A stretch of 59,879 nt of DNA, filler included, from Sphacelaria rigidula (Eukaryota): assembly GCA_964200075.2 (NCBI GenBank). It is 5 parts of 5 records of this genome, joined end to end, with 100 filler letters (N's around TTAATTAATTAA, not from the genome) between each part and the next. Parts side by side here need not be neighbours in the genome. Positions count along the whole stretch, not along the records: positions 35,992 to 47,886 come from CAXNAA020004363.1; 4 more parts are not named here. The stretch is one strand, 5' to 3'. A program made the position numbers and the translations under genes. The notes beneath the pieces are model-generated. The model did not search any database. It saw only the letters and a list, made by a program, of their open reading frames with translations, and had not been told where the DNA came from. The stretch's first letter is position 1; each line of letters begins with the position of its first letter. Below are positions 20,225-57,530 of this stretch, piece after piece.

Positions 20225-20595
20225 TGAATAGATACACTGCAGTAGCTGGGAATGCTTTGTTATTTATTGTTGGTGATAACTTGCGCGTCTTCTCTCATGA
20301 TGAGCATCAGCAACAAAACTGCGTGGTACGGTTGGCAACCGAGTTGCGTGCACGCTCATGGATAGTGCAGTCTGTACAAAGCTGCACGTTGCTGAAGTCC
20401 TCCTCACATCGAATTGTAAGCAGGGAGGACTGATAGTCCTGGGCTTTCTGCACTGCATGTTGCCCACTTCTCCTTCATATCTTCCTGAACGAAACACTCA
20501 CACACGCACTCAAGACACCCTGCTTGCAAGCGGTGCAGACAGTACAGACTTTGTGTATTGTACACGAGTGACCATGTCTACCGTCACGAATTTCA
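20225..20595 (+). repeat. dispersed repeat, inverted copy at about 57160-57530
   Basis: About 370 bp alignable, including gcaaccgagttgcgtgcacgctcatgga, ctgatagtcctggg and gacaccctgcttgcaagc. Confidence 0.9.
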
Positions 20596-31197: not shown

Positions 31198-32161
31198 CTC
31201 TCCGCGCATCGTAGACCCATGTGTAGACGACATGCGGATGACCGGTTTTTGTTGGACCCGATAATTTGTTACCCGAGGGTAAGAGTGCGTATCACCCTCA
31301 GGCTCGGGTGAAACCGAATAAAGCCCGGTCTTGAACAAAAGGAGAAAAAGCGAGGGCGAGGTTTTGAGGAGGAGAATAAGAGTGGCGATTCAACTGTTTT
31401 GAATCCTGCTGATTGGTGATCGGTTGCTGTTCCGTAATTATCGCCCTCAGAATAACTCCCACTAAAAACGATCATTATTTCATGTATTTTAGTGAGAAGG
31501 GGCGAACAACCCGATGATATTGCGGTGGTTGCTCAAACGGCCGCAGCAGATCCATCGTCTATGGCAGCGGGACTGTTTGCGTATAAAGCAGTGATCCATC
31601 CACCTCTCCGCGTGTAGTCATGCTCTCATTTTGTTTTTTTATTGCCGTCGACAGGAAATGCTTCTCGTGATTATGACGTTTTCACGACTTCATTATCGTT
31701 TTTCATTCCGCTGCAAGACCCGGTCTAACACCCCCTTGTGATACGTCTTGGGTGGTTGTTTTTAGTGGACATGTCGGTTGGTACCTGTAGAGTGCTCTTG
31801 TATGTGGAGATATGCACAGTATTCGTAACGACTTTTGGTGTAATTGACGTTGTCTTCACATTGAAAACCGTTCCCATATCTGCGTAGTACTCGGTATTGG
31901 GTTTCTGACGCAGACGTCTTCCGTGATTACAGGTCGGTGTTTTGTGTGGAGGTCGCTGGATATCGTCTTTGGGGAGTGATCACTTGTATGACATGTAAAC
32001 CGGTGCTGAAGCCAGTATAGGAGCAGATCCAACCGTGGACTGTTGGAGGTGTCTGAAACTCTCATATCTGTACAGCCGATTTTTACGGGACCCTGTGCAG
32101 AAGTTCTCATCGGTGCAAGAGCTGCTAATATCAAGGGCCACCGTCGAGCCCTGGGGAGTTA

Positions 32162-32591
32162 GGCCGGATGTTATAGCGAACGTATTTTTGGCCCACGGAT
32201 TGTTCACTTTTGGGACGTTTGACCCACCTTTTGACCCCCAAACCAAGAAAACCGCCAACACACAAGTCGGACACTCTGCATCACCCCACATAGAGGAGCC
32301 TAGTCTGCTTTTCAGATTCGCTTGACTCCGAGGTTTCGAGATTGGCCGCTAAAGAAAAATTCGTGCGCAAAAATCTGAGCTTGTCGACCCCCGCCAGTTT
32401 AGTACGGCCAATCTTGAAACCTCGGAGCCAAGCGAATCTGAAAAGCAGACTAGGCTCCTCTCTGCGGGGTGATGCGAAGTGTCGGAGACACGTGTTGGCG
32501 GTTTTCTTGATTTGGGGATCAAACGGTGGGTCACACGTTCCGAAAGTGAACAATCCGTGGGCCAAAACTCTGTTTGCCACAACATCCGGCC
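32162..32591. mobile_element. PIF/Harbinger (Tourist-like) foldback MITE
   Basis: Inverted arms of about 187 bp (32162-32348 and 32405-32591) starting GGCCGGATGTT, flanked by TTA at 32159-32161 and 32592-32594. Confidence 0.88.
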
Positions 32592-34642
32592 TTAGAACTC
32601 TGACTGCATAACAGCACAAGGGAACACGAGCAACTATGCTGTACCCGGTGCAGGTTGACCACTAGAGCCCACCCCTCGACTACGGCCAATACTTGCCCAA
32701 ATGACAAGGAAGGAAACCATCGTCTAGCCTTAGCGATTGCTACCCTCCACCGTAGGTCACGATAGTATCACGTTTGAAATCCGAAATCTCGGTAGCCCGA
32801 GGGGTAGATGCAACGTATCCTTCATTGCAGAGTGCAGTACTGTAGATGTCAGCATATTGGCGAAAATACTCCCAGGCCTCTTCACTCAAGGCTGTCAGTT
32901 ATTCAGGGTTGCCCAAGGATGACGTATTGTACAACACGGCCTCTTGTTTTTGTTACAATGTGATGAATATACCACGTGGCACCGGAAATAGTGGGGAAAA
33001 TGATGACTCTGGACAAGGGGTGCCAGATATATGAAGTCTGGTACCACATCCTCCTCAGTTGCTCTTCGCCAAAATCTTTTATATAGTAATTATATTTTTT
33101 CACAGGGATTCCGAGTCGGTTGTTTTCCTTCTCTTCAAGTTTTTCATCGTATTTTTCGAGGGGTGTGGTGCGAATTTAAAATTTCCAAGGTTGGGTGTGA
33201 CCGTAGACCCTTTGACCGTGTGCGAGGATCATCTGTTGGAACAGCATCGATTTTGGTTCAAAATTTAGTGCGTGACCAAATGACCTACCCTCGCGGTCGA
33301 ATAGTTAAGGGTACCTATTCTCCCCACAGCTGCTCGCAACGCGGCATGGTTTACTATTTGCACGCGTCGGTGATAGCCACCGTTGTCCAGGTTACGATGA
33401 GGAATCAAAATACTTGGGGGTTGTTCGGGTTTGTCTTTTCTGCCGCTTGTTGTTCATACTCGAGTTTGTGACTTCGTGGCAGGGTGCGCTTGTACCGCGT
33501 ATGTCGAAATGTGTGTCATACTCCAGTCTTTCATGCTTCCGTGTGTATTTAGAAATCCTGTAACGGCTTTCGTGCTTGACACATGAGCCCTCGGTGCAGT
33601 GAATTAAAATGTGCTGCTTTCACGGGCTGCGCGTGTTGTACAAAACGAATCGATTGTCGAATTACGCGAAGCGCTTTCATGCAATCGATGGCCCATTGTC
33701 GCGCTAGCGCTCGTCGATTTTTCGGTGTTCTCATGCAAGTGTGTACCGACCTCTTCGTATATCATCATTGTTGAGAACCAGCTGGGCACACCGTGTGTTC
33801 TGCAGCAATGTTTTTCAGTATACACCGTTATGGGTAGGAATGGAGACCGATTTTGGGTACCATATTCATGGAAAGTGTAAGCTGAACGCTACATGCGTCA
33901 AAAGTGGTCCGTAATCCAACGAATCATATCAATGGAAAATACACGCGTCACCTACAAATGGCAATTTGGCTCAAAACAATGAACTATATTTCTAGTACAT
34001 TTATTCAAGCCTGGGAGTGGTCGGTGTTGAGGTGATTTTGTTCCTCCGGGAAGCTCGCTCCACATCAGTAGATAGACAATCTTGTTGCACTAGCTAATAG
34101 TGTCCTTCCTCTGTGTACCAGTCGGGGAGCACACGCCCGCGAGCTGCCATCCCACGTTTACCGTCCTTGCGAGATAACAAAAAAAGAGCGCAAACAGCAT
34201 CTGTTGTGGTCGCTACACACCAACGTAACTGCAGTGAAACGCGTGGCTGACATGGTGCTAGAACGAGAACGTACGGAAATTTGGAGATCATGAGCAGCAG
34301 CGTCGCGCATCTGAAAGCTACTGAGAACGATGCTTATGATGTTGGCGATCAAGAGGTTCATGCTGTGCGGATTGGCTACGCGCGGCATGTCCTACACACA
34401 GCTATGACTGCGGGATTGGAGGGTGAATTTCTCATTGGCCCCATGGGGTCAGGGTCATGGCATGAGTAGAGGGAATCCCACCTTGTCAGTCCCTTGAGCA
34501 CGGTCTGGTTCTCTCTGTCCAGATCAACATCTTCAACGTCGTTTTCTCGCTATTGTCGGTATGTACGAATATATGTACAGGCAGTCACTTGAAACATCGT
34601 GGCCCTGCCGACCTAGGCATACATGGTGCGCAGTCTGAAATT

Positions 34643-35991: not shown

Positions 35992-36094
35992 TCCCTCAGG
36001 TCATGAGAGTCGTTTTAATTCGGTAGATGTAGTTAAGAAAAGCCAAATCTTTAGTTTTCATATCTATTGCGAACTTCGCTCGACAGTAAGTACG

Positions 36095-37033
36095 GTAGAG
36101 CAACGAAAGCTAGCTGTGATCGGGTGTGCTTGCCGTAGTTGCGTAAAAGCCACAAGACCTTTGCTGTCGGCGGTTGATGGCGTGGGTGTCAAATGCAACG
36201 AGAAGTAGTTGATCGTAGAGCACGCTCGTCCCAGCTTGTAATGCATGATCTACTCACATCGCCATAGTTCTGGAAAGCTACTCGTACTGTACCGAGGTGT
36301 TCACGCGACCAGCGTGTGCTCCAGGTTGCAGCATGGACGGACTCCTATGCACCACACTAGCAACAGTTAGGTCGCCACAATAGGTATATTTGTTCACTTC
36401 GCATGTTAAAAAGGTCTCTACAAGTGATTGATCTCTCATATACTCCCCTAAACTGGCGTGTGGCACACTGCTGTGGTCGGGCACTCAGAGGGTCCGATGT
36501 GGGTAAAATCAATGGTGAATAACACCCCGCCAAGGTCAAATTGAATCCATTTGTCATGGCCGCACCCACCGCCCTTGCTGGCATGTGTGTGACAGAGAAC
36601 AGTAGCAGCGGTGACGGAAACATTGCCCTGTTTTTCAACGGCATGTTTTTCAGCGCACATAGGCGTGTCCTGTTCGAAAGGAGAGGCAGAGAGAAATCCA
36701 TCTTCGCATTGGTGAGCTCGACAGGGAATTGTAAGAGGAGTGGAAATCTCTCCGCAGCTCGATGTTTCGGCATATGGAAAATTGGACACATGGTAACATC
36801 GATGATGCCAGTCTCTCGAGCGTTTGGTAATCGCCGAGCGAGGACACACAAAGGACACGGGCGAGGAGCTTCCTCTCTGTCGTTGCTTCTCTCTCTGGTG
36901 ATTTCGTCAGCGACGCGCGTGTGCACCGCGTTCGTTAGGTGCACCCAGCCACAGCTGCTTAACTGCTGGGGACATTTGGGGGGAGGGAGATGGCTCCGCT
37001 CGGTCGTAAGTGTTTGGCGTCATCCCTGCAAAA
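36095..37033 (+). repeat. about 940-bp repeat, copy 1
   Basis: Collinear with 39580-40534. Shared blocks include tagagcaacgaaagcta, gtgtgacagagaacagtagc, tccatcttcgcattggtgagctc and tttggtaatcgccgagcgaggacacacaaaggacacgggcgaggagcttcctctctg. Confidence 0.92.
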
Positions 37034-39579
37034 CAAACACCATTTCAACCTCATTTTCGATATGGACCCCATTTTTCAGGATCCACTGTTTTTTGGTCTC
37101 GCGGGTTGGGTCAACACTCCCGTACCGCGTCAACGCACGTCACACAAACTCAGTCGGCTACTTTGTTTACTCACGTTCTCATGCTTTGCACGGTGGGAAT
37201 CATAAATTACGAAGATAATACTCAACGCGTCGGGAATCGAACCCTTGTTCTCTCCACCCTGACGGTTACAGTCGGACAATGACACCACCGGGTCGTAGCG
37301 GCATATACTCGGATTAGTAGGGTTCAACTCATGAGTAATTTCGGCCACATCTATATGCACGATCTCATTTCTGACATGCTTCCATAATGCGCCGCTATTC
37401 GTGTCTACAGTGAAAGCACGTCATTCGCATCTGTGCCTGCATGCATGAAGAATATCATGCCCCGGCAAAATTTTCGACAGCTAAAGCACATTACGTTCGT
37501 CTGTAATTCCGGAGAATGATGGTCGTAACATTTTAACCAACAATGCATGTCGTTCACCAAACCGCCATTTTTTTCACACCATCACTACCTGTCATAACGG
37601 TAGCGTGTCATGATGCTGCAGGGATATCATAGCCAACCGGTCCGAGGTGAACGTCACTTTCAAGCCTAGCTGGCGTCGGTAAACGGGCCTGCCGAATAAA
37701 CAACGCGGTTTTGCTTCAATTGGATTGCACTGCAAACTCCCGTGTGGCAAATACAGTAAGCGCAAGCTCGATGGGTGAAGGCAGCATAGCGTTGCTCCTT
37801 CCAGCTGCATCGTACGGTGGAAATCGAGCGTACAGCAGCTATTGGAGGGAAAGATATAGCAAATCAGTGTAGAGAACCATGCTATCTTAGCATCAACCGT
37901 GACTCCTGCCGAATGAGACCTACTTGAGAAGATCTGACTCTGCATAGTAACAGTATCAAATCGGACTGTGCACGCATCTCGCAGGGTTGCTTCATTCAAA
38001 TTGCATTGCACGCAGGGACACAGAGTGCGGCAGCAACCGCTGCGTGGTGTATAAAGCAAGCACAACGTTGTCTCATCACACGGCAAAGTCATAGCGTACA
38101 GTAGCAGCGGCGTGAGTTGTGAACGCGTCCAGCGTGGCTTCATCAGATACAGTACAGTGAGTGGTGCAATACGCAGGTAGTTCGTTTTGCGTTCAACCTG
38201 TAAAATGCCAACCCACCTGCAGCACAAAACATTAAAGATCTGGAGTATCGCGTATAATAGTTCCAAGCTCAAAATTCTGCGGAATTTTGGTTTCCTTCGG
38301 TCAAGCTCTTGACAGCCAAACCCCCTACAGCTCTTCTGTGATTTGCAAGACTGGCAAGTGCAGGACTTGCACGGTGTTGTATGTCGTATATATTATAGTC
38401 CTATATTACACACCATGGTTACAATTCACAACTGTAGCATCATGGAGCTGAAAAGGTACCCTGTTTTCCCTTACGTACGCAGAAAAACATGATTATCAAC
38501 TCAGGGGATCTCGTCAAACGAGACTGTAAACTCGAATGATTGAATGGCGCTAGTTTGAATATCCACACCGCCAAAGTAGAACATGAGCCCACTATTGTGT
38601 TGCTCACTCGAGCTGTCTCACACGGCAGGAGCTGAGCATACAACAGCTGCTACTTTGAGCATCAAGCTGTCTAATCTCACAGTCATAGGGTGGCGTACAG
38701 CCACACCTGCGCAGTGTATAGATTTGCGTTGTTTGTTTCATCCACATCACGGGGTGTAAAGGTTCATCTCTCCCACGTTTTCGTTGATGTGTGCAAAAGA
38801 GCTTCCCTGTTGCGGCGTGTAAAGCAAGCATAACGTGATCTCCTCATGCAGCACCATCATAATCCACTGTATCCACTGAGTGGAAATTGGGGTAAAAATT
38901 GCCCTGCTTTATCACACGGCGCAAGAACCCCGTAAGCCAGTGTTGCGGTTGCGATGTCGCGGTATGCGGTGTAGCTTCTGTTTCGTGCCTATTTGAAGCA
39001 ACACTGGCGGCAGTATAGCAGGCAACTTCGATCATAGCTAGCGTTTGTTGCTCTACTGTACTCACTGTCGTCTGCACAGTCACGTTGACAACATGCACGG
39101 AAATTAACAATGACTGTGAAAACCAAACAGTTGAATTTTTTCAACTAATTTCACACAATTTGAGGGACTCTTAAGAGCTGAGGGAAAGTGGCCGCTTTGG
39201 GTCTGGTCAAACGTGCGAAGATACTGCCGAACAGCGACACGAAACTTTGCTGGGATTGGCATACGGCAATCAATACAGAACAGAACAGAAATCGACAGCT
39301 TAACGTTCTTATTTGAAACGAATGCGCATGAAACGGCTTGCAGGTCGGGAAGCGCGGGTTTTCATGGAGTAGAAACTCTCTGTGCCCCCGTCAGTATTAC
39401 ATGCGCTTGAGAAAGGTCTATCGTCGTTCTTTAATACCTGGCGAGGGGATGAATAGCAACCCTTCCTCAGCTCTTGACCGTCCTTCAAGTTGTGTGAAAC
39501 TAGTTGAGAAAATTCAACTGTTCAGCTTGTACAGTCCGTGTATGTTGTCAACGTGACTGTGTAGACGACAGTCAGCACA

Positions 39580-40534
39580 GTAGAGCAACGAAAGCTAACT
39601 ATGATCGGGTTTGCCTGCTGTACTGTCGCCAGCGTTGCTTGATAGCCACACTACCTTTGCGGCCGGTGGTTGATGGCGTGGGTGTCAAAACTAACGACAG
39701 GTGGATGATCGTGGAGCACTCTTGGTACTCGTGGGGTCATATTTTGCCCCAGCTTGTGATGATACTGGAAAGCTGCTGTACCGTGAGGTTCACGCAGCGG
39801 ATGTGTGCTCTAGATTGCAGCATAGAGGCACCCCTCTTCGCCACGCTACCAACAGTTAGGTCACCACCATAATAGGTATATTTTTTCACTCCGCATGTCA
39901 AGAAGGTCTTCACAAGTGTTTGATCTCTCATACATTCCCTCAACTGGCGTGTGACACGCTCCTGTCGTCGCGCACCCAGATGGTCACATGTCGGGTAAAA
40001 TAAACGATGAATAACTCCCCCCAAGTTCACATTGGATCTGTTATTGCCGCAGCAACGTCCTTGTTGGCATGCGTGTGACAGAGAACAGTAGCGGTGACGA
40101 GAATTTTGCCCTGTTCTTCCACGACATGCACTGCAGCGCACAGAGGCACGTCCTGTCGAAAACGCAAGGCAGAGGGAGATCCATCTTCGCATTGGTGAGC
40201 TCCAAAGACAAGAAGAGACGGCATCCCTCCGCATCTCGACGTTCTTTGGGGGGCTGTGCCTGGCTGTGCAGCGATATAACATGCCTACCGGCACATGAGA
40301 AATAGGGTATGTGCTGGTAACATGCATAATGTTAGTCCCTCGAGTATTTGGTAATCGCCGAGCGAGGACACACAAAGGACACGGGCGAGGAGCTTCCTCT
40401 CTGCCGTTGCTTCATCGACAGGCGTGTACACCGCATTCATTCTGTGCACCTGGCCAAAACTGCTCAACTGCTGTAGACATTTGGGGGAAGATATGGTTTC
40501 GCTCCGTGTAACTGTTTCGCGTCATCTCTGCAAA
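39580..40534 (+). repeat. about 950-bp repeat, copy 2
   Basis: Direct diverged copy of 36095-37033. Confidence 0.92.
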
Positions 40535-40759
40535 AAAGGTATGCTGCTTGATCCTCATTTTTCATACCAACCCAGAAACTTCAGATCCGCTGTTAAGTAT
40601 TGCATCAAATACTGCATCGACTACTGTACTCTCCAATAAGCAAGTTCAAGACACCAGCCGAACGTCAGCTTCAACAGTGACTGATACATGCCCGTCATCA
40701 CGGGGTTTAGGCTTTACTTTTGGGCTTCACTGTTTTTGTTGGTCCTGCGAACAAGGAGA

Positions 40760-41982
40760 GCACTCGGACATCCGTTTCTATACCATTCGAGATGGTTTGT
40801 GGTTCAGGGACTTCACACCACTACTTGGACTCCTGCCCAACAGAGAGGAATTGTTTGACTACGTGAAACTTGATCCTCCCATGAGAATTCTTACAGCAAG
40901 GCGCAATCTACTTCACGGCACAAGCAAAAGGGTGCTCCACTTCATCTTCTGTGACCAGCAGGGTAATCAGCACTCCGTCCACCTTGCAGCCATCATTGCT
41001 TCCGGCCTAGGAACACACCTCTTCTCACCCGTTGAACCATTGACGAAGGATGTTGAAACCGTTTTTTCCGTTAACTCTCCTATGGATCTTGGAAAAGTCA
41101 ACATTCAAATCCGCACCGACAACAACGGTATGCTTCACTTCATCAACATGAAGACTATTTGGGATCCAAGGACCTCCAACACAAACACCGGGTCAGCACT
41201 CACGACTAAGGTCGTGTCCAGGGAATGTATAGGGATGGGCACAGCATCACCAGCAGCAACATCTCCACCGGACATTAAACCGACAGGAGCAGTCAAGATA
41301 GCGGAACCACCTCCAACAGCTCCCGGCAGAACAGTGAAAATAGCGTGCGATCCACCGGGGGGAATGAAGAAGAGTCCAAATCACGAAAATAAAGATCTTC
41401 ATGGGTCAAGCCTGCAACTGCACACAACAACACAGATAGTGAACAGAAGTTGAAATTTCACGAAAAGAAACAGCGCGCCAACTCTGCAACCGCACACAAC
41501 AACAGGCGTGGACACTACAGAAGTAGGGGTACAGGAGTTGAGGCTATCTCATTTTCTACAGCAGAAGAATTGACAACTTGACGGCAGAAGAACCGTAATT
41601 ATCTTCCCCTTCGCGGTTATGATCATCAGCGGCACCAGAAGTACCAGCGCCAGCAAAATCAGCAGCGGCACCAGCGTCAGCAGCAGCAACCCAAGGCATC
41701 ACCCCAGGGTAGTTCCGGCATCAAATTTACAAAATCAGGATACATCAGAGAAGTGCTTGGCACCAAGAAAACCGATTCATCGGTGCTGCAGCAGATGCTT
41801 GCTGCACCACCTGCACACGTGAAAAGCGGGGCGGTTCTACGTCCCAGGAACATCGAGCGTAGAAGGCGCGGTGCTGAAATCCCCATGAGCCAGTACAAGC
41901 AGCACAAATGAAAATCACCTGATTTTTCAAGAAGCAACCATCCCAAGTGACACCACCTGTAAGCCCGAGAGCGGCATCCACT
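40760..41982 (+). mobile_element. Ty1/copia relic (protease region and low-complexity linker), interrupted by the LTR element
   Basis: MVCGSGTSHHYLDS at about 40792-40833 resembles the copia VDSGASxH motif. After a frameshift comes DYVKLDPP...GLGTHLFS. The frame QVTPPVSPRAAST continues as IEKPAPIFSALEHH after 45764. Confidence 0.7.
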
Positions 41983-42402
41983 TGTTACGGTGAATACTGA
42001 CTGTATATGTAATAGGTGTTTCGAAGTGCACATGACATGTACAGTAGGTTTTATTCCATTCGCATATTGGTGTCGTGTTCCAATTAGACGTGATCAGTCG
42101 GGGCCCTGGCCTATCACAACTTTTCCAGCACCCAGAAATTCTGGTTCTAGCTAACCAGTAGCCAAGCCTAATGACGAAAGCTATCAGCCACACTTGGAGA
42201 CATCCCGCTTGCAAGCAAGTCAAGAGCACCTCACTGCACGTGAACGTGAGTCCCTGTTTGACCTTATGATGCAGTGCTGGTTAGACTATCACTCCTCTCG
42301 ACCGCGATCGTTCATTGCGGCCAGCCGCTGGCTTCGTGCCACCCCTGGCCTGGTATGTTCCTCTAGAGTGATACCAGTATCACGTCGTGGCTAGACCACA
42401 AC
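41983..42402 (+). repeat. 5' LTR
   Basis: TGTTACGGTGAATACTGAC...GACCACAAC, collinear with 45335-45759. Confidence 0.92.
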
Positions 42403-42403
42403 T

Positions 42404-42440
42404 TGGTGACCAATCCGAGAATCGAACTCGGGTTTCCACG
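42404..42440 (+). promoter_or_regulatory. extended primer-binding site, complement of a tRNA 3' half (His-like)
   Basis: Reverse complement is CGTGG AAAC CCGAG TTCGATT CTCGG ATTGGTC A CCA: 3' anticodon stem, variable loop, perfect T-arm, acceptor strand, discriminator and CCA. Confidence 0.85.
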
Positions 42441-42528
42441 CAGGAGGTAGTCGTAAGACCAGGAGACCCGCTACTGCATATGTTGTCGACCCTTTGCAAG
42501 TCAAGACATCAGGTAGGGTGAGCACGTC

Positions 42529-42765
42529 CCATTGGCTTTTGGAACCAAGCGCACATTGCCTGACACGCTCCTTCCCTCCCCGACTTGCCGTGTCGACGCA
42601 AAACCACGCATATATCTAACCTGACTTGCACCTATCTCACAGAAACGTCTCATTGGCTCTTTGAACCAAGCGCACATTGCTTGACACGCTGCTTCCCTCC
42701 CCGAGTGCCGTGCCGACGCAAAACCACGCATATATCTACAGCTGATTTGCACTTATCTCACAAGA
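42529..42765 (+). repeat. two tandem units of about 120 bp in the element leader
   Basis: cattggct.tt.gaaccaagcgcacattgc.tgacacgct...cgacgcaaaaccacgcatatatcta...tgcac.tatctcaca occurs twice. Confidence 0.9.
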
Positions 42766-42799
42766 AGCAGAACCACGTATAGTACTGAATTCTTGCGTA

Positions 42800-43400
42800 G
42801 AATAGAGCGAACAGCACCTATGCGAGGTAAGACTGGTGATGGATCCGGAGAGAGATCTCAACGAGTCGGGATGGCAACCGCAGGAATTGCAGTACTAGAA
42901 CACGGTACATGGAAAGTTGACAAGGATCGATGACGGCACGCGGTCCGAAGGTGGTGATGCCAGGACACAAAATACGTACGCGCAGGATAGCCCGCCATAG
43001 GTCGAACCGTATCTCGTTACCCGCCTCACCTAAGATAGTCAATCGCAGACGCTTCCGCCTCGTTTGCCTGAACACTATACTTCAAGGCGACGCCAACGTT
43101 TGACCAAAAACCTTACCTCCTCACCCGGAAAAACCGACGCGAGTCTCAATCAAGAAAATATCAGATTGGAAAAAGCGAGGAAAGACTCAGGATGGAGCAA
43201 TGTCGGAGGGGCTACCAGCAAGCGGAATGCTGGAAAGCCTCACGCTCCCACGAGTGGACGGGTTCCACGCCCTTCGGCACCTACACCACCGGGCCAAGGC
43301 ATCAAGTGTGCCAACCCGCCGGAGCACGCCATGTCCCTCTGTCGCGCAGTGATACTCTGAACTTGTCCTCCATACGTTCCGTATTCTGAGAGGATTTTGA
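42800..43400 (+). pseudogene. decayed gag-like region
   Basis: Lies downstream of the PBS. Broken basic/Pro-rich frame ending KCANPPEHAMSLC, a possible eroded zinc knuckle. Confidence 0.35.
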
Positions 43401-43749
43401 CGGAACTGAGCGAAAAAGACAGGTCTTCGACGACGTCAAATGCTGCGGGAGAGTTATATAAGACGGCGAAGACTACGTAAAGTCTTCAAGTGAAGAGTTC
43501 CAGCAAATGGCCCACACGAGCGAGCCTATGGCATTGAGCGAACAAAGCAGAAAAAAACATTAATTTTGTACGAAGGAGATAATAGGAGATCGTTTTGTGC
43601 TGCATTACATGAGCGAGCACCGTTTTGTCTATTTTTTTCTAAGTAATGAGTAGTAGTTCAGTACTATTTCTTCCATAGAAGATCATTATTTTGGAACGTA
43701 CGCTTTCTGCCCCTTACCCGTACCTTCGTCCTTTTATCCAACATTAACC

Positions 43750-43808
43750 TCTCCCTGATGAGCTCAAGCCGGGAGTCCCGCTCTTGCAGCAAAACTAGTC
43801 ACGGCTCC
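43750..43808 (+). ncRNA. degenerate type I minimal hammerhead ribozyme motif
   Basis: CTGATGA at 43755-43761. Stem II gctcaag..cggg-agt-cccg..cttgcagc. Then AAAAC (GAAAC with G12 to A), TA, GTC (palindromic ACTAGT stem III). Stem I is weak. Confidence 0.6.
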
Positions 43809-45334
43809 TTCATCAAAATCGCTCTCGCCTGCTCGAAAACGGTCTGAGGGCTGCCACAAAAACCGAGGAAAAGCCCCGCGAAGTTACGTTGCCAAACACG
43901 ACTAAGTGATGATTGAACTTTTATGTTCACGTCAGAGAAGGCTTCAAACCGTCATTTTCATACTAAAATCTAGTTGTTGGCGGTTTCACCGTGGCACGGC
44001 AACGCTCATCGCACAAACACGAAAAACTTCAAGCCATGGTGCTTTTCTTCTACCTTCGTCGGGTCTGTTTTCACCCGTGTTTTCCCGTTGATCAAGAGCT
44101 AGACTATATATTTGGTCATCGTTTGCGGCTTAATTACCTCACTTCAAAACGATTGATCTTGATTTAGTTTTGGGGGCATGGTCCGCCTTCTTGATTTTTT
44201 CGCCTCGTTTTTCTTGGGATGAGATTTTCCCCTCAGGACCTTATGGTTTCTTATTTGTTCGGTTTCCTGGTCTGGATTCCTCCATTTGTTCCTTTTCCCT
44301 AGTCCGTTTTGGTTTCTCTGGCTTTTGTAGGACCTGATCCTTTTTCTCGTGTCAGTTTTTTTCATTCATCATTTGATTTTCATGAGTTTTTTCATTGCAT
44401 TTTGAACCTGGTGTGAGTGTTTTTGTTTTCTTTCATATTCCAATTTCCTTTTCCCCGTTCTCTTTTTTTGTGGGTCTGGTTTGTTACTCCGGCACTTATA
44501 TTTCGGTTTCTCTTCCTTTCCACGTTTTCGTGGGATCAATCTTCCCCCGCTCTTTGCTTTTTTTCCCGGTCTTGCATTCCGTGGAGATTATTTAATTCTC
44601 CGTTGTGTCAGACCTGATTGCGCCCTTTGCTTCAGGCACCTGGTCCGTTCATCACGTTTCTTCATCCTCGGAGAACGTTAATCCGATTTTAGGGTGCCCC
44701 ACCCCTTCCGAGTAGAGATCATGTCGTGGAGTCAGCATTGTACGAAAAGGGTGGGGAACGAGTATCTACTCGGACACTGTACCATGACGGAACTGTTAAT
44801 CTGAGATGTAGGAGTCCCCCGGTGTCCAATAGGTCCGTTGCTGCTGGCGGGTGAGAGAAAAGCCTACGCACCCTCATCAACTAGTGTGCGCTTTCTTGGG
44901 GTTTGGAGTGGGTCAGCTTTTTTTGCGAGTCCTACACTGCTCAGCATTGGTGTAATCAATCAGGGGTGTCTAAGCGCCGTTACCATCGGAAAATAGTCAC
45001 CGGCTATTCTCGGTGGTTTCTGTTCCCAGTGTAACTGGGATCCCGGAACGACATAGCACATGCGAAAGCACTCGCTATGATCCGAAGGGGCGTGAGAGAG
45101 CTTTCCCCCAAAAATGAGGCTTTCCCCCCCCTGAATAACAGGTTTCCCCCATCTTTTTGATTTTATGACGAGTTTTTCCCGCGGTCATCTCTAGCCCCGA
45201 AATTCTGCGGTTTTCTCGTCTTTGACCTTATATTAGGCTGATAGCAAAGAAACTTGAGTGAATCACCTGGAGTGAATCGAGCTGTGTCTTTCCTGGTCTT
45301 GCATGAGCAGCCTGCACAAAGCCAGGGAGGAGGG

Positions 45335-45759
45335 TGTTACTGTGAATACTGACTGTATATGTGGTAGGCGTTTAGAAGTGCACATGACATGTACAGTAGG
45401 TTTTATTCCATTCGCATATTGGTGTCGTATTCCAATTAGACGTGCTCAGTCGGGGCCCTGACCTATGACAACTTTTCCATCACCTTGTACCTTCGGTTCT
45501 AGCTAACCAGTAGTCAAGCACCATGACAAAAGCTATCAGCTACACTTGGAGACATCCCGCTTGCAAGCAAGTCAAGAGCACCTCACTGCACGTGAAAGTG
45601 AGTCCCTGTTTGGCCATATGATGCAGTGCTGGTCGGACTCAAGAATCAGTCCTCTCGACTGCGATCTTTAATTGCGGCCAGCCGCTGGCTTCGTGCCACC
45701 CCTGACCTGGTATGTTCCTCTAGAGTGATACCAGTATCACGTCGTGGCCAGACCACAAC
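45335..45759 (+). repeat. 3' LTR
   Basis: TGTTACTGTGAATACTGAC...GACCACAAC, directly after the polypurine tract. Confidence 0.92.
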
Positions 45760-46709
45760 CCACCATCGAGAAGCCAGCACCCATCTTCAGCGCACTGGAG
45801 CATCATTCACCAGAAATATTGCTCGTCACGGAGCATAGGACGTACTACAGCATGACATCGGTTGAACTTTTCGTGTTTTGTTTGAAATGGAACCCTACTT
45901 TGTGCGAGCAGGTCCTCGTACTTCACTTTGCAGGATTTTAACATCATCATGACAACCACAGCAACTACGATCGAGTGAGGGCGTGGACAGAGGCGAGCAG
46001 TTACAACATCACCGAAATCGGACCGAACAAGATCAACGAACGCTACAAAAGTAACAACATCATTATCGAGTACAGATCCAGTGAGATATTTGTCAATGAC
46101 TGCTTGACTGGTACAGTAGCAGCGCAGTAGAGCATGGTATGTACGTACATCTTTTTTGTTTGTTTGACCATACGTAAGTACCAGAAATTTCCCCGAGAAA
46201 TTATTTGAGGGGATATTGGCTGTGCACTTTAGCGCATGGTTGGCAAGCACGTCGAAATCGATGAAAGGTTTTGTTATGACACCCTGTTCGATACAATACA
46301 CAGTCAAAAAAGTGTACTGAATACAGTATCGAGTATTGCGCCTATAGCAATAGACAATAGATTTCACACTGTACGCAGTACATTTTTCTACAATAATAGA
46401 AGCTTTTGTCCAGGGTGTGTTCGTTATACTGTTTTTAATGCATGGGCCTGTATGAAGGACCAAGCTTTATTTGAAACTTATGTGTCACGAGTACCGTACA
46501 CCGTACGTACCGGATTTGTTTATCAACCTGTGTACAAAAGTTCTTGATGACGCACCATGGTCATATGCCTTAGGTCAAATTCAACTGGCGATAACAGTCG
46601 CGCCCATAATAAGCGTTGGAGCACAAAAACGATATATCAAAGACATTGTTGGAAATCTGACACACAACTTTTAGTTTGGATGCATTTCCCATGTTCTGGG
46701 TTTCGGCTA

Positions 46710-55711: not shown

Positions 55712-56010
55712 CGCATCGGCTGGGGTGCGCCGCCCCTCCCCGTCCAGTGTTGTGACGGGGGATGATTTTCAAAGAGGACGGCAACGATGTCGCGGGTGGT
55801 GATATTGGACCCGCATCGACTGGGGTGCGTCGCCCCTCCCCGTCCCGTGTTGTGTCGGGGGATTGTTTCAAAGAGGGCGGCGACGATGTCGCGGGCGGTG
55901 ATGTCAAGCCCAAATTGGCTGGGGTGCGCCGCCCCTCCCCGTCCCGTGTTGTGACAGGGGATGTTTTCAAAGAGGGCGGCGACGAAGTCGCGAGCGATGA
56001 TATTGGGCCC
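55712..56010 (+). repeat. three tandem 99-100-bp units plus partial copies to about 56250
   Basis: ctggggtgcg.cgcccctccccgtcc at 55720, 55820 and 55919. Confidence 0.93.
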
Positions 56011-57159
56011 GAAATTTTATGATGATTCAGACGTGCGGCGTTGGCTGGTTGGCGATAGATTGTCGCTGTATAGAGCAGCATCATCGTAATCCCTTGTGTG
56101 TATATCCTCGTCCCGAGTTGTGACGAGGGATGCCTAAACAAAGGAGAAGAAGAAAAGGGCGCCGACGATGGCGCGGGTGGTGGTATTGAGCCCGGAGTGT
56201 TATGATGATCCAGACGAGTGGCGTTGGTGGTGGTATTGAGCCCGGAGGTTCACGGTGATCAAGCGTGTGGCGTTGCGTCGTTGACTATGGATTGTCACGG
56301 CGTGGAACAGCAATAACATCCCTGGTACAACGGTTGATGTTGCACCCGCCAATGTTGTCCTTGCCTTCGGATGCGTCGGACGCGGCTGTCAGGGGCTATT
56401 GTTTGCCGTCGGGCATGTGGCGGCGGTGTGACTTTACCGCCGAGGAAAAACCTGTTCCCGATAGCCACGTTATCAAATGAGATCTGTGCTGGATTAGGAA
56501 AAACGAGAATGCACGAAGGACGCACCTTCAGTTGGGGTAGCCGCTCCTCTGCGGATCCCCGCGACTTCCGTCGAATACCGGACAATGAGGCCGACAATGA
56601 TAAGGAGGTCCTTGTCAGAGGAGACATGTTTTCCACAAGGCATTATGCTATACTTGGAAAAAAGTGTACCAGCTAAGCCTTTTACGTCTGTGGGTGTATT
56701 AATACTGAAATTTGTACGATTTTCATGAAACTCAGAATTTTGGTGAATTCGGACATTCGGCAAAAATTTGCGCTATTCAGATTCTCCTATAAATATTTTT
56801 GTAAAGAAAAGAAAATCTGGCTCTCCTATTTCGTTCTGCGTTCAGAAGTGTATCCTGCATGCAGGTTAGCGGGGATGAGGGTAGGGAGCCAGTATGTTGT
56901 ATTCCCATGCTGATACCCGCAGATAAGAGGTTTTCCGCAGGAAACAACACGTTCGCGAAATTTGGAACGGATTTTTTCGGAACGGGAGGCCTTTCGTGAT
57001 TTACACCGCGACAGTTATGGGCGCGCCTGAGGGCGTGTCTTCGCACTTTTCTTGTCGATCGAAAAAAACGGAGCGGTGGAATCGATTTGAGCGAAAATTT
57101 CTCGTTTTAATGCGGTTGGGTCCTGATGGATTTTCAAGCTTTCGATCGAAACAAGGCAG

Positions 57160-57530
57160 TGAAATTCGTGAAACGGTACGCGGTCACTCGTGTACAGTGC
57201 AGATAGTCTGTACTTTCTACACTGCTTGCAAGCAGGGTGTCTCAAGTGCGTGCGTGCGTGTTTCGTGCAGAAGGATATGAAGGAGAAGGGGGCAACGTGC
57301 AGTGCAGACAACCCAGGACTATCAGTTCTCTCTGCTTACAATGCGACGTGAAAATGACTTCAGGAACGTGTAGCTTTGTACTACCTGCACTGTCCATGAG
57401 CGTGCACGCAACTCGGTTGCCCACCGTACCACGCGGTTCCGTAGCTAATGCCCACCATGAGAGAAGATGAGACGATTTTCGCCAACAAAAAATAAACGAA
57501 GCACAACCAACTACTGCAGTGTATCTATCC
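57160..57530 (-). repeat. inverted copy of the repeat at 20225-20595
   Basis: Collinear reverse complement. Confidence 0.9.

Follow-up and report, generated by a model that had tools for sequence, protein, structure and literature searches.

A putative tRNA-like primer-binding site of 36-37 nt shared by an old algal LTR retrotransposon and a large repeat population of the same organism

How far into its tRNA primer can the primer-binding site (PBS) of an LTR retrotransposon reach? In the part of PMC13191261 drawn on here, the primer anneals to the PBS with its 3′ 18 nt and is then used as template for plus-strand strong-stop DNA until m1A58, and PBS lengths are quoted as 18 nt for retroviruses and 8-18 nt for retrotransposons in the corresponding part of PMC7773854. 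A locus of Sphacelaria rigidula, contained in the stretch of 59,879 nt that was analysed as a whole (hereafter the window), was described in an earlier note as carrying a site of about twice that length. This raises the questions of whether the site is a PBS at all, whether it belongs to one copy or to many, and by what mechanism it could arise and be maintained.

The element in question occupies positions 41983-45759 and is an old, non-autonomous, LARD-like algal LTR retrotransposon. Its two direct repeats on the plus strand, a 5′ LTR of 420 nt that starts with TGTTAC (41983-42402) and a 3′ LTR of 425 nt (45335-45759), are 90.8% identical over 425 alignment columns. They are flanked by the target-site duplications CCACT (41978-41982) and CCACC (45760-45764), both read directly from the sequence, which agree at four of five positions; the single mismatch is consistent with the 9% divergence of the LTRs, which marks the element as an old insertion. 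Being old, the window copy is uninformative on present activity. An 11-nt polypurine tract (PPT), AGGGAGGAGGG, was likewise read directly at 45324-45334 (plus strand) and abuts the 3′ LTR. The structural hallmarks of an LTR retrotransposon, i.e., two direct LTRs, a target duplication of 4-6 bp, a PPT and a PBS, are all found, and the LTR pair, the PPT and the target duplication bear out the earlier statement that the PBS adjoins a real LTR.

The internal region of 2.9 kb (42441-45323, plus strand) carries no recognisable gag or pol in ORF and Pfam scans: no internal plus-strand ORF is longer than 98 aa, and none of the seven plus-strand ORFs of at least 60 aa matched Pfam at E up to 1, in a scan that covered the plus strand and left out three minus-strand ORFs. 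Judged by its plus-strand ORFs, the element thus lacks the gag and pol (PR, RT, RH, INT) of an autonomous Ty1/copia or Ty3/gypsy element, and is therefore classified as non-autonomous and LARD-like. Just 3′ of the PBS, the leader contains a tandem duplication of 119 nt (42524-42641 and 42645-42762, 90% alike); joints in contigs of the sequencing runs described below skip or repeat this unit, which indicates that its copy number differs among family members.

Several other features of the window were observed. Two direct repeats of about 1 kb (36081-37033 and 39566-40535), separated by 3.5 kb and only 72% alike, could be an LTR pair of much greater age or stem from a segmental duplication, and no tRNA complement of the TGG type was seen immediately behind 37033. 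Two inverted repeats, each about 370 nt long (20228-20595 and 57160-57528, 84% alike, with 36.5 kb in between), represent another dispersed repeat family, and there are a near-perfect palindrome at 32161-32592, with arms of about 190 nt that are 82-87% complementary and 56 nt apart, and a tandem array at 55712-56016 with units of about 99-100 nt that are 83-89% alike. An ORF fragment at 195-824, which matches the dimerisation domain of semialdehyde dehydrogenases (Pfam PF22698, E 5.8e-15), probably represents a single exon of a host gene; the protein clusters listed for it are mostly bacterial and point to no lineage.

Aligning the two LTRs places the end of the 5′ LTR at 42402. A single spacer base at 42403 (plus strand), T in the window copy and A in nearly all related contigs, separates this LTR from the TGG with which the putative PBS begins. 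The sequence at 42404-42440 (plus strand), 1 nt behind the LTR, is exactly the 37-nt tRNA-like site that had been claimed. Its reverse complement parses without a gap into 5 nt of the 3′ strand of an anticodon stem (tRNA positions 39-43), a 4-nt variable loop, a T arm, the 7-nt 3′ strand of an acceptor stem, a discriminator A and CCA, 37 nt in total. The T arm has a 5-bp Watson-Crick stem and a 7-nt loop with the usual conserved bases, and its hairpin was recovered by RNA folding; the earlier note had drawn attention to this perfect T stem and to the CCA. By its form, the site appears to mirror, in one unbroken complement, the final 36-37 nt of a class-I tRNA in its mature state (positions 39/40-76, CCA included). 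The complement of CCA reflects a mature tRNA, in line with the origin first proposed. With a canonical PBS the site shares its place next to the 5′ LTR, its TGG start and a PPT before the 3′ LTR; it differs in that its 36-37 nt of unbroken tRNA-type complement lie outside the quoted 8-18 nt (PMC7773854, in the part drawn on here), and the description of it as about twice the usual length is upheld.

The site is also difficult to obtain by chance when its full form is considered. The 37-mer on the plus strand has a single match in the window, and with up to 3 mismatches allowed it was matched in none of 100 shuffles. A loose descriptor (TGG, 12 N and the T-loop complement) is not rare, as it has one match in the window and at least one in 27 of 100 shuffles, whereas a strict descriptor that adds a 5-bp Watson-Crick T stem has one match in the window, at 42404, and any match at all in one of 1000 mononucleotide shuffles. 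No other long tRNA-type PBS was found in the window. A tRNA gene or tRNA-derived SINE at 42404 was considered as well and rejected: only the 3′ 37 nt of a tRNA are present, antisense to the element and without a cloverleaf. ARAGORN found no tRNA gene in the whole window, and Rfam gave nothing at gathering score in the window nor at E up to 10 in 42300-42560, from which it follows that 42404-42440 is part of a tRNA and not a tRNA gene.

Whether the long site is peculiar to the window copy can be judged from sequencing runs that were found by words of the element's sequence and are labelled 'algae metagenome' and 'organism A'. X1, X2 and X4 are DNA runs of the same organism and X6 is presumed to be RNA; no RNA run is listed among those carrying the element's words. 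Contigs of these four runs were aligned to 41950-42900 at 80% likeness, which showed a highly repetitive region (645-768 contigs per DNA run), and statements on individual contigs refer to the matches listed, which come from longer tables. In contigs of the three DNA runs, the summed depth over the block 42404-42439 is about 40-fold that over the flanks, summed contig depth not being a copy number. The mean summed depth in X1 is 3094 for 42366-42397, 15317 for 42398-42429, 5523 for 42430-42461 and 268 for 42462-42493, and the shape of the jump is alike in X2 and X4. According to our own arithmetic, a uniform block from 42404 to 42439 fits both central bins with nearly one depth (approximately 18.7k and 17.1k in X1, 61k and 49k in X2, and 9.3k and 7.5k in X4), whereas a block of 18 nt fails the fit because the second bin would then be at flank level. 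Since the individually listed contigs are 13-82 deep, the block corresponds to some hundreds of depth equivalents.

The contigs themselves show where the common sequence begins and ends. Among the matches listed, about two dozen contigs per run match nothing but the block, with its TGG, and are unlike the window to the left and right of it, and loose ends fall exactly at the ends of the block: 23 before 42404 and 26 behind 42439 in X1, and 19 and 24 in X4, with no such rows at 42404 or 42439 among the matches listed for X2 and X6. The left-flank consensus of the loose-end contigs ends in ...CGATCTGTGACA in both X1 and X4, an LTR-like ...CA end that is unlike the element's own ...CCACAAC(A), and the TGG-initiated block of 36 nt is thus also found behind at least one further LTR family. 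Closer relatives are present too. Base 42403 is A in related contigs of X1 (14 contigs, 468.5 of 468.5 depth), X2 (21 contigs, 1819.9 of 1819.9) and X4 (18 contigs, 906.1 of 920.6), and this A in DNA contigs that run across the junction identifies true relatives and leaves the T as private to the window copy. Contigs that cross the PBS at 94-95% identity include, among the matches listed, record 20 of X4 (42341-42590, 14 differences in 250), and record 28 of X6, also among the matches listed, crosses it over 42250-42849 with 29 differences.

These contigs bear directly on the simplest alternative, namely that a single aberrant read-through or the capture of a tRNA fragment produced the long site in the window copy only. 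The presence of a single copy in the 60-kb window would agree with such an accident, but it would account neither for related contigs at 94-95% identity that cross the PBS nor for two dozen differently flanked contigs per run in which the block has the same two ends; a one-off capture was rejected on this run-contig evidence and is considered extremely improbable. The possibility raised earlier that other members have a normal short PBS is likewise not borne out, as the long block is found in many copies and in differently flanked elements. The long PBS is thus a property of a large repeat population in the organism and not of the window copy alone, and the conserved block (42404-42439, plus strand, as defined by the run contigs) opens with the complement of CCA and reaches as far as tRNA position 40. 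Whether the last base of the window copy's site, 42440 (tRNA position 39), is part of the PBS is uncertain, since other copies share the block only to 42439; the span of positions 39-76 given in the earlier note holds for the window copy, whereas position 39 lies beyond the common block.

Conserved pieces of the LTR and leader reach a depth equal to or higher than that of the block (69,258 and 38,896 in X1), which makes the PBS island part of one abundant population. The most conserved LTR island, at 42174-42237, has a summed depth of up to 69,258 in X1 and 172,561 in X2, far above the remaining LTR; a very large LTR population may have it in common as the core of a promoter or R region.

A different reading of the same depths is that the high-copy block comes mostly from tRNA genes or from a tRNA-derived repeat (SINE-like or a retro-pseudogene), in which case its conservation across families would be overestimated. 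The total depth listed for X1 at 42406 is only 503, as against about 18,000 inferred for the block: either a high-depth contig goes uncounted near its end, or that contig is without TGG, and in the latter case tRNA genes or a tRNA-derived repeat would contribute to the block. The X1 flank AGCCTAAATGTGG... would, in our own reading, also complete a perfect anticodon-type stem of 5 bp with a 7-nt loop, as such a source might be expected to do. However, the 19-23 loose-end contigs per run before 42404 carry TGG, which is absent from eukaryote-type tRNA genes, and their left flank has the LTR-like end ...ACA. A block that starts at 42404 also fits the two depth bins better than one that starts at 42407, and the depth of the block is in line with that of the LTR population, as given by the LTR and leader pieces of X1. 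Considering both sides, we regard a predominant contribution of tRNA genes or tRNA-derived repeats as very unlikely.

The right flank of the loose-end contigs deserves a separate description. Behind 42439, X1 and X4 both have the consensus AGCCTAAATG, to which TGG is joined in X1; overall agreement is only 0.41. Read as a tRNA complement, AGCCTAAATG would add the pair 31:39, a loop of 7 nt and the 5′ strand of an anticodon stem. This stem, perfect over its 5 bp, uses the last four bases of the PBS, and the apparent anticodon, UAG, is a misfit with the class-I body. A sister family in which the tRNA copy runs on to position 27 may be represented here, or the resemblance may be due to chance.

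The identity of the tRNA from which the block would derive was sought in sequence collections. The exact 25-mer of T arm and acceptor had no match in 241 million metagenome records (metagenome_contigs), two 24-mers of the PBS had none in viral_contigs or genome_contigs, and a 74-aa minus-frame translation across the PBS yielded no candidate among proteins of 40-130 residues. A degenerate pattern that fixed the acceptor strands and the T-loop consensus only (15 of 34 positions) gave 105 matches in metagenomes, from 83 loci and with 32 distinct sequences. The majority (71 of 105) are eukaryote-type tRNA-Glu(CUC) genes, with 26-29 of 34 positions identical to the PBS-derived 3′ part, whereas other isotypes with the same acceptor (Cys, Lys, Arg and bacterial-type Glu) reach 19-24. 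Within Glu(CUC), 14 of the 19 free positions agree with the PBS complement, including the whole variable loop and T loop, and two differences in the T stem form one compensatory pair (52:62, G-C to A-U), which supports real tRNA ancestry. The 3′ strand of the anticodon stem agrees at only 2 of 5 positions, so the isotype is not fixed as Glu. The commonest trailers printed for the Glu(CUC) genes are T-rich and not CCA, which is among the commonest only for bacterial-type genes. Often two of these tRNA-Glu(CUC) genes stand in tandem at a distance of about 97 nt (loci L009, L012, L013, L016 and others), and the contigs that carry them measure up to 3 Mb.

The primer had first been assigned to tRNA-His. 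Among the metagenome matches no tRNA-His has the acceptor of the PBS, and the closest is Glu(CUC) at 29 of 34 positions, of which 15 are fixed by the pattern. An ungapped comparison with the 238 ARAGORN tRNAs of the 83 loci, which were chosen by acceptor pattern and hence cannot exclude His, gave 29 of 34 for Glu(ctc), 22 for Arg(acg) and Glu(ttc), and 6 for the single His(gtg). The assignment to His is therefore not sustained by these data, and Glu is, from sequence likeness, the best lead for the primer isotype.

With regard to the mechanism, minus-strand synthesis would, as is the case for other LTR elements, begin at the 3′ end of the tRNA. In making plus-strand strong-stop DNA, RT would then copy the attached primer to about position 40, without a stop at 58. 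Two routes could lead to this end: the primer might be a 3′ tRNA half that starts near position 40, which RT would copy by run-off, or it might be a full tRNA in which A58 is no block and RT halts at the anticodon stem. The element RNA would already hold the matching 36 nt, complementary up to position 40, which would allow the long strong-stop DNA to make the second jump. In this way the block would be rewritten from the host tRNA in each cycle, and such rewriting would explain an island of identity between diverged LTR ends and leaders. We put the chance that templated copying to about position 40 is a continuing mechanism, by a 3′ half or by an unblocked A58, at roughly even; priming of the alga's LTR retrotransposons by a 3′ half in particular (approximately positions 40-76) is regarded as unlikely. 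The halt at a modified base 37 that the earlier note had hinted at fits less well, as it predicts copying through position 38, whereas the common block ends at 40 (39 in the window copy). No hard RT block is known at position 39-40. Plus-strand products of HIV-1 can end, depending on modification, at m1A58, psi55, m5U54, position 37 or the tRNA's 5′ end, according to the part of PMC13191261 drawn on here.

The main competitor of continuing templated copying is selection, a reading that is absent from the earlier note. The long pairing could be kept only because it serves primer choice, annealing or packaging, while strong-stop DNA ends at the usual place or the tRNA copy is not inherited. A conserved block across diverged families would be equally expected under purifying selection, and Ty1 and Ty3 offer a precedent: their PBS is not renewed from the tRNA, and a mutant primer is not reflected in the PBS of the progeny (PMC5371799, in the part drawn on here), so the copying of primer sequence into progeny is not universal. 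In those elements, too, element RNA pairs with the primer's acceptor strand and T arm, as it would in the alga. In Ty3, however, they pair with separate short boxes about 4.8 kb apart, in a bipartite arrangement, and Ty1 has extended contacts (same source). The known extended contacts are split and short (as far as the same part of PMC5371799 describes them) and their tRNA copy is uninherited, whereas the algal stretch is contiguous. Moreover, a gap-free complement of 36 bases that begins at CCA would arise readily if a tRNA is copied, but only with difficulty through point mutations, so that the origin of the block is better explained by templating. Maintenance by selection alone is seen as possible, although somewhat unlikely.

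In the full text of open-access PMC and bioRxiv papers, neither a contiguous PBS of about 36 nt nor priming by a 3′ half was found described. Among known devices, the one that comes closest is the primer over-extension sequence (POS) that lentiviruses and spumaviruses carry, which lies directly 3′ of the 18-nt PBS and accepts over-extended products (Muthuswami et al. 2002, via the part of PMC13191261 drawn on here). In both cases the complement to primer bases past 58 is contiguous with the PBS, a likeness that in the alga is one of form only (58 to 39/40, without a gap). The products served by the POS have their ends at psi55 or m5U54, which is a few bases beyond 58 (same part of PMC13191261), whereas the algal site extends 18-19 nt further, covers the whole T arm and the variable loop, enters the anticodon stem, and belongs to an LTR retrotransposon rather than a retrovirus. 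By analogy, the algal block looks like the POS principle taken much further.

Primers that consist of half a tRNA are the other relevant comparison. The copia primer reportedly consists of the 5′ 39 nt of a tRNA, a finding ascribed to Kikuchi (1986). In half-tRNA priming as described for copia, Osser, Bryco, Bianca and Ty5, a cut in the anticodon stem or loop gives the primer (PMC6317226 and PMC5371799, each in the part drawn on here). The end of the algal block at position 40 lies in the region where half-tRNA primers are cut. A PBS for a 5′ half is without the CCA complement, whereas the algal PBS starts with TGG and the complement of the discriminator, runs inward from position 76, and would correspond to a 3′ half.

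If the population of 36-nt sites is what it appears to be, its significance would lie in the origin of the PBS length rule. A PBS of 18 nt is accounted for by an RT stop at m1A58, and a 36-nt population would tie that rule to the modification of the host tRNA or to the fragment used for priming, so that elements would co-evolve with one or the other. Encoded in the genome, such sites would serve as a natural read-out of the point at which RT stops on a native tRNA, or at which the tRNA is cut, and would widen the over-extension of primers from the few bases known in lentiviruses to half a tRNA. Should 3′-half priming be true, it would be the mirror image of the copia-type 5′ half and a fourth priming mode; the 36-nt PBS would then be a run-off copy, and the genome would record the site of tRNA cleavage in vivo. 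Should the copy in a sister family indeed run through the anticodon arm, the anticodon of its primer would be preserved. There may also be consequences for host defence and for annotation: tRNA fragments of 18-22 nt are known to target PBSs, and a target of 36 nt would be open also to silencing by 3′ tRNA fragments and halves, while annotation tools that seek short PBS matches would under-describe such families.
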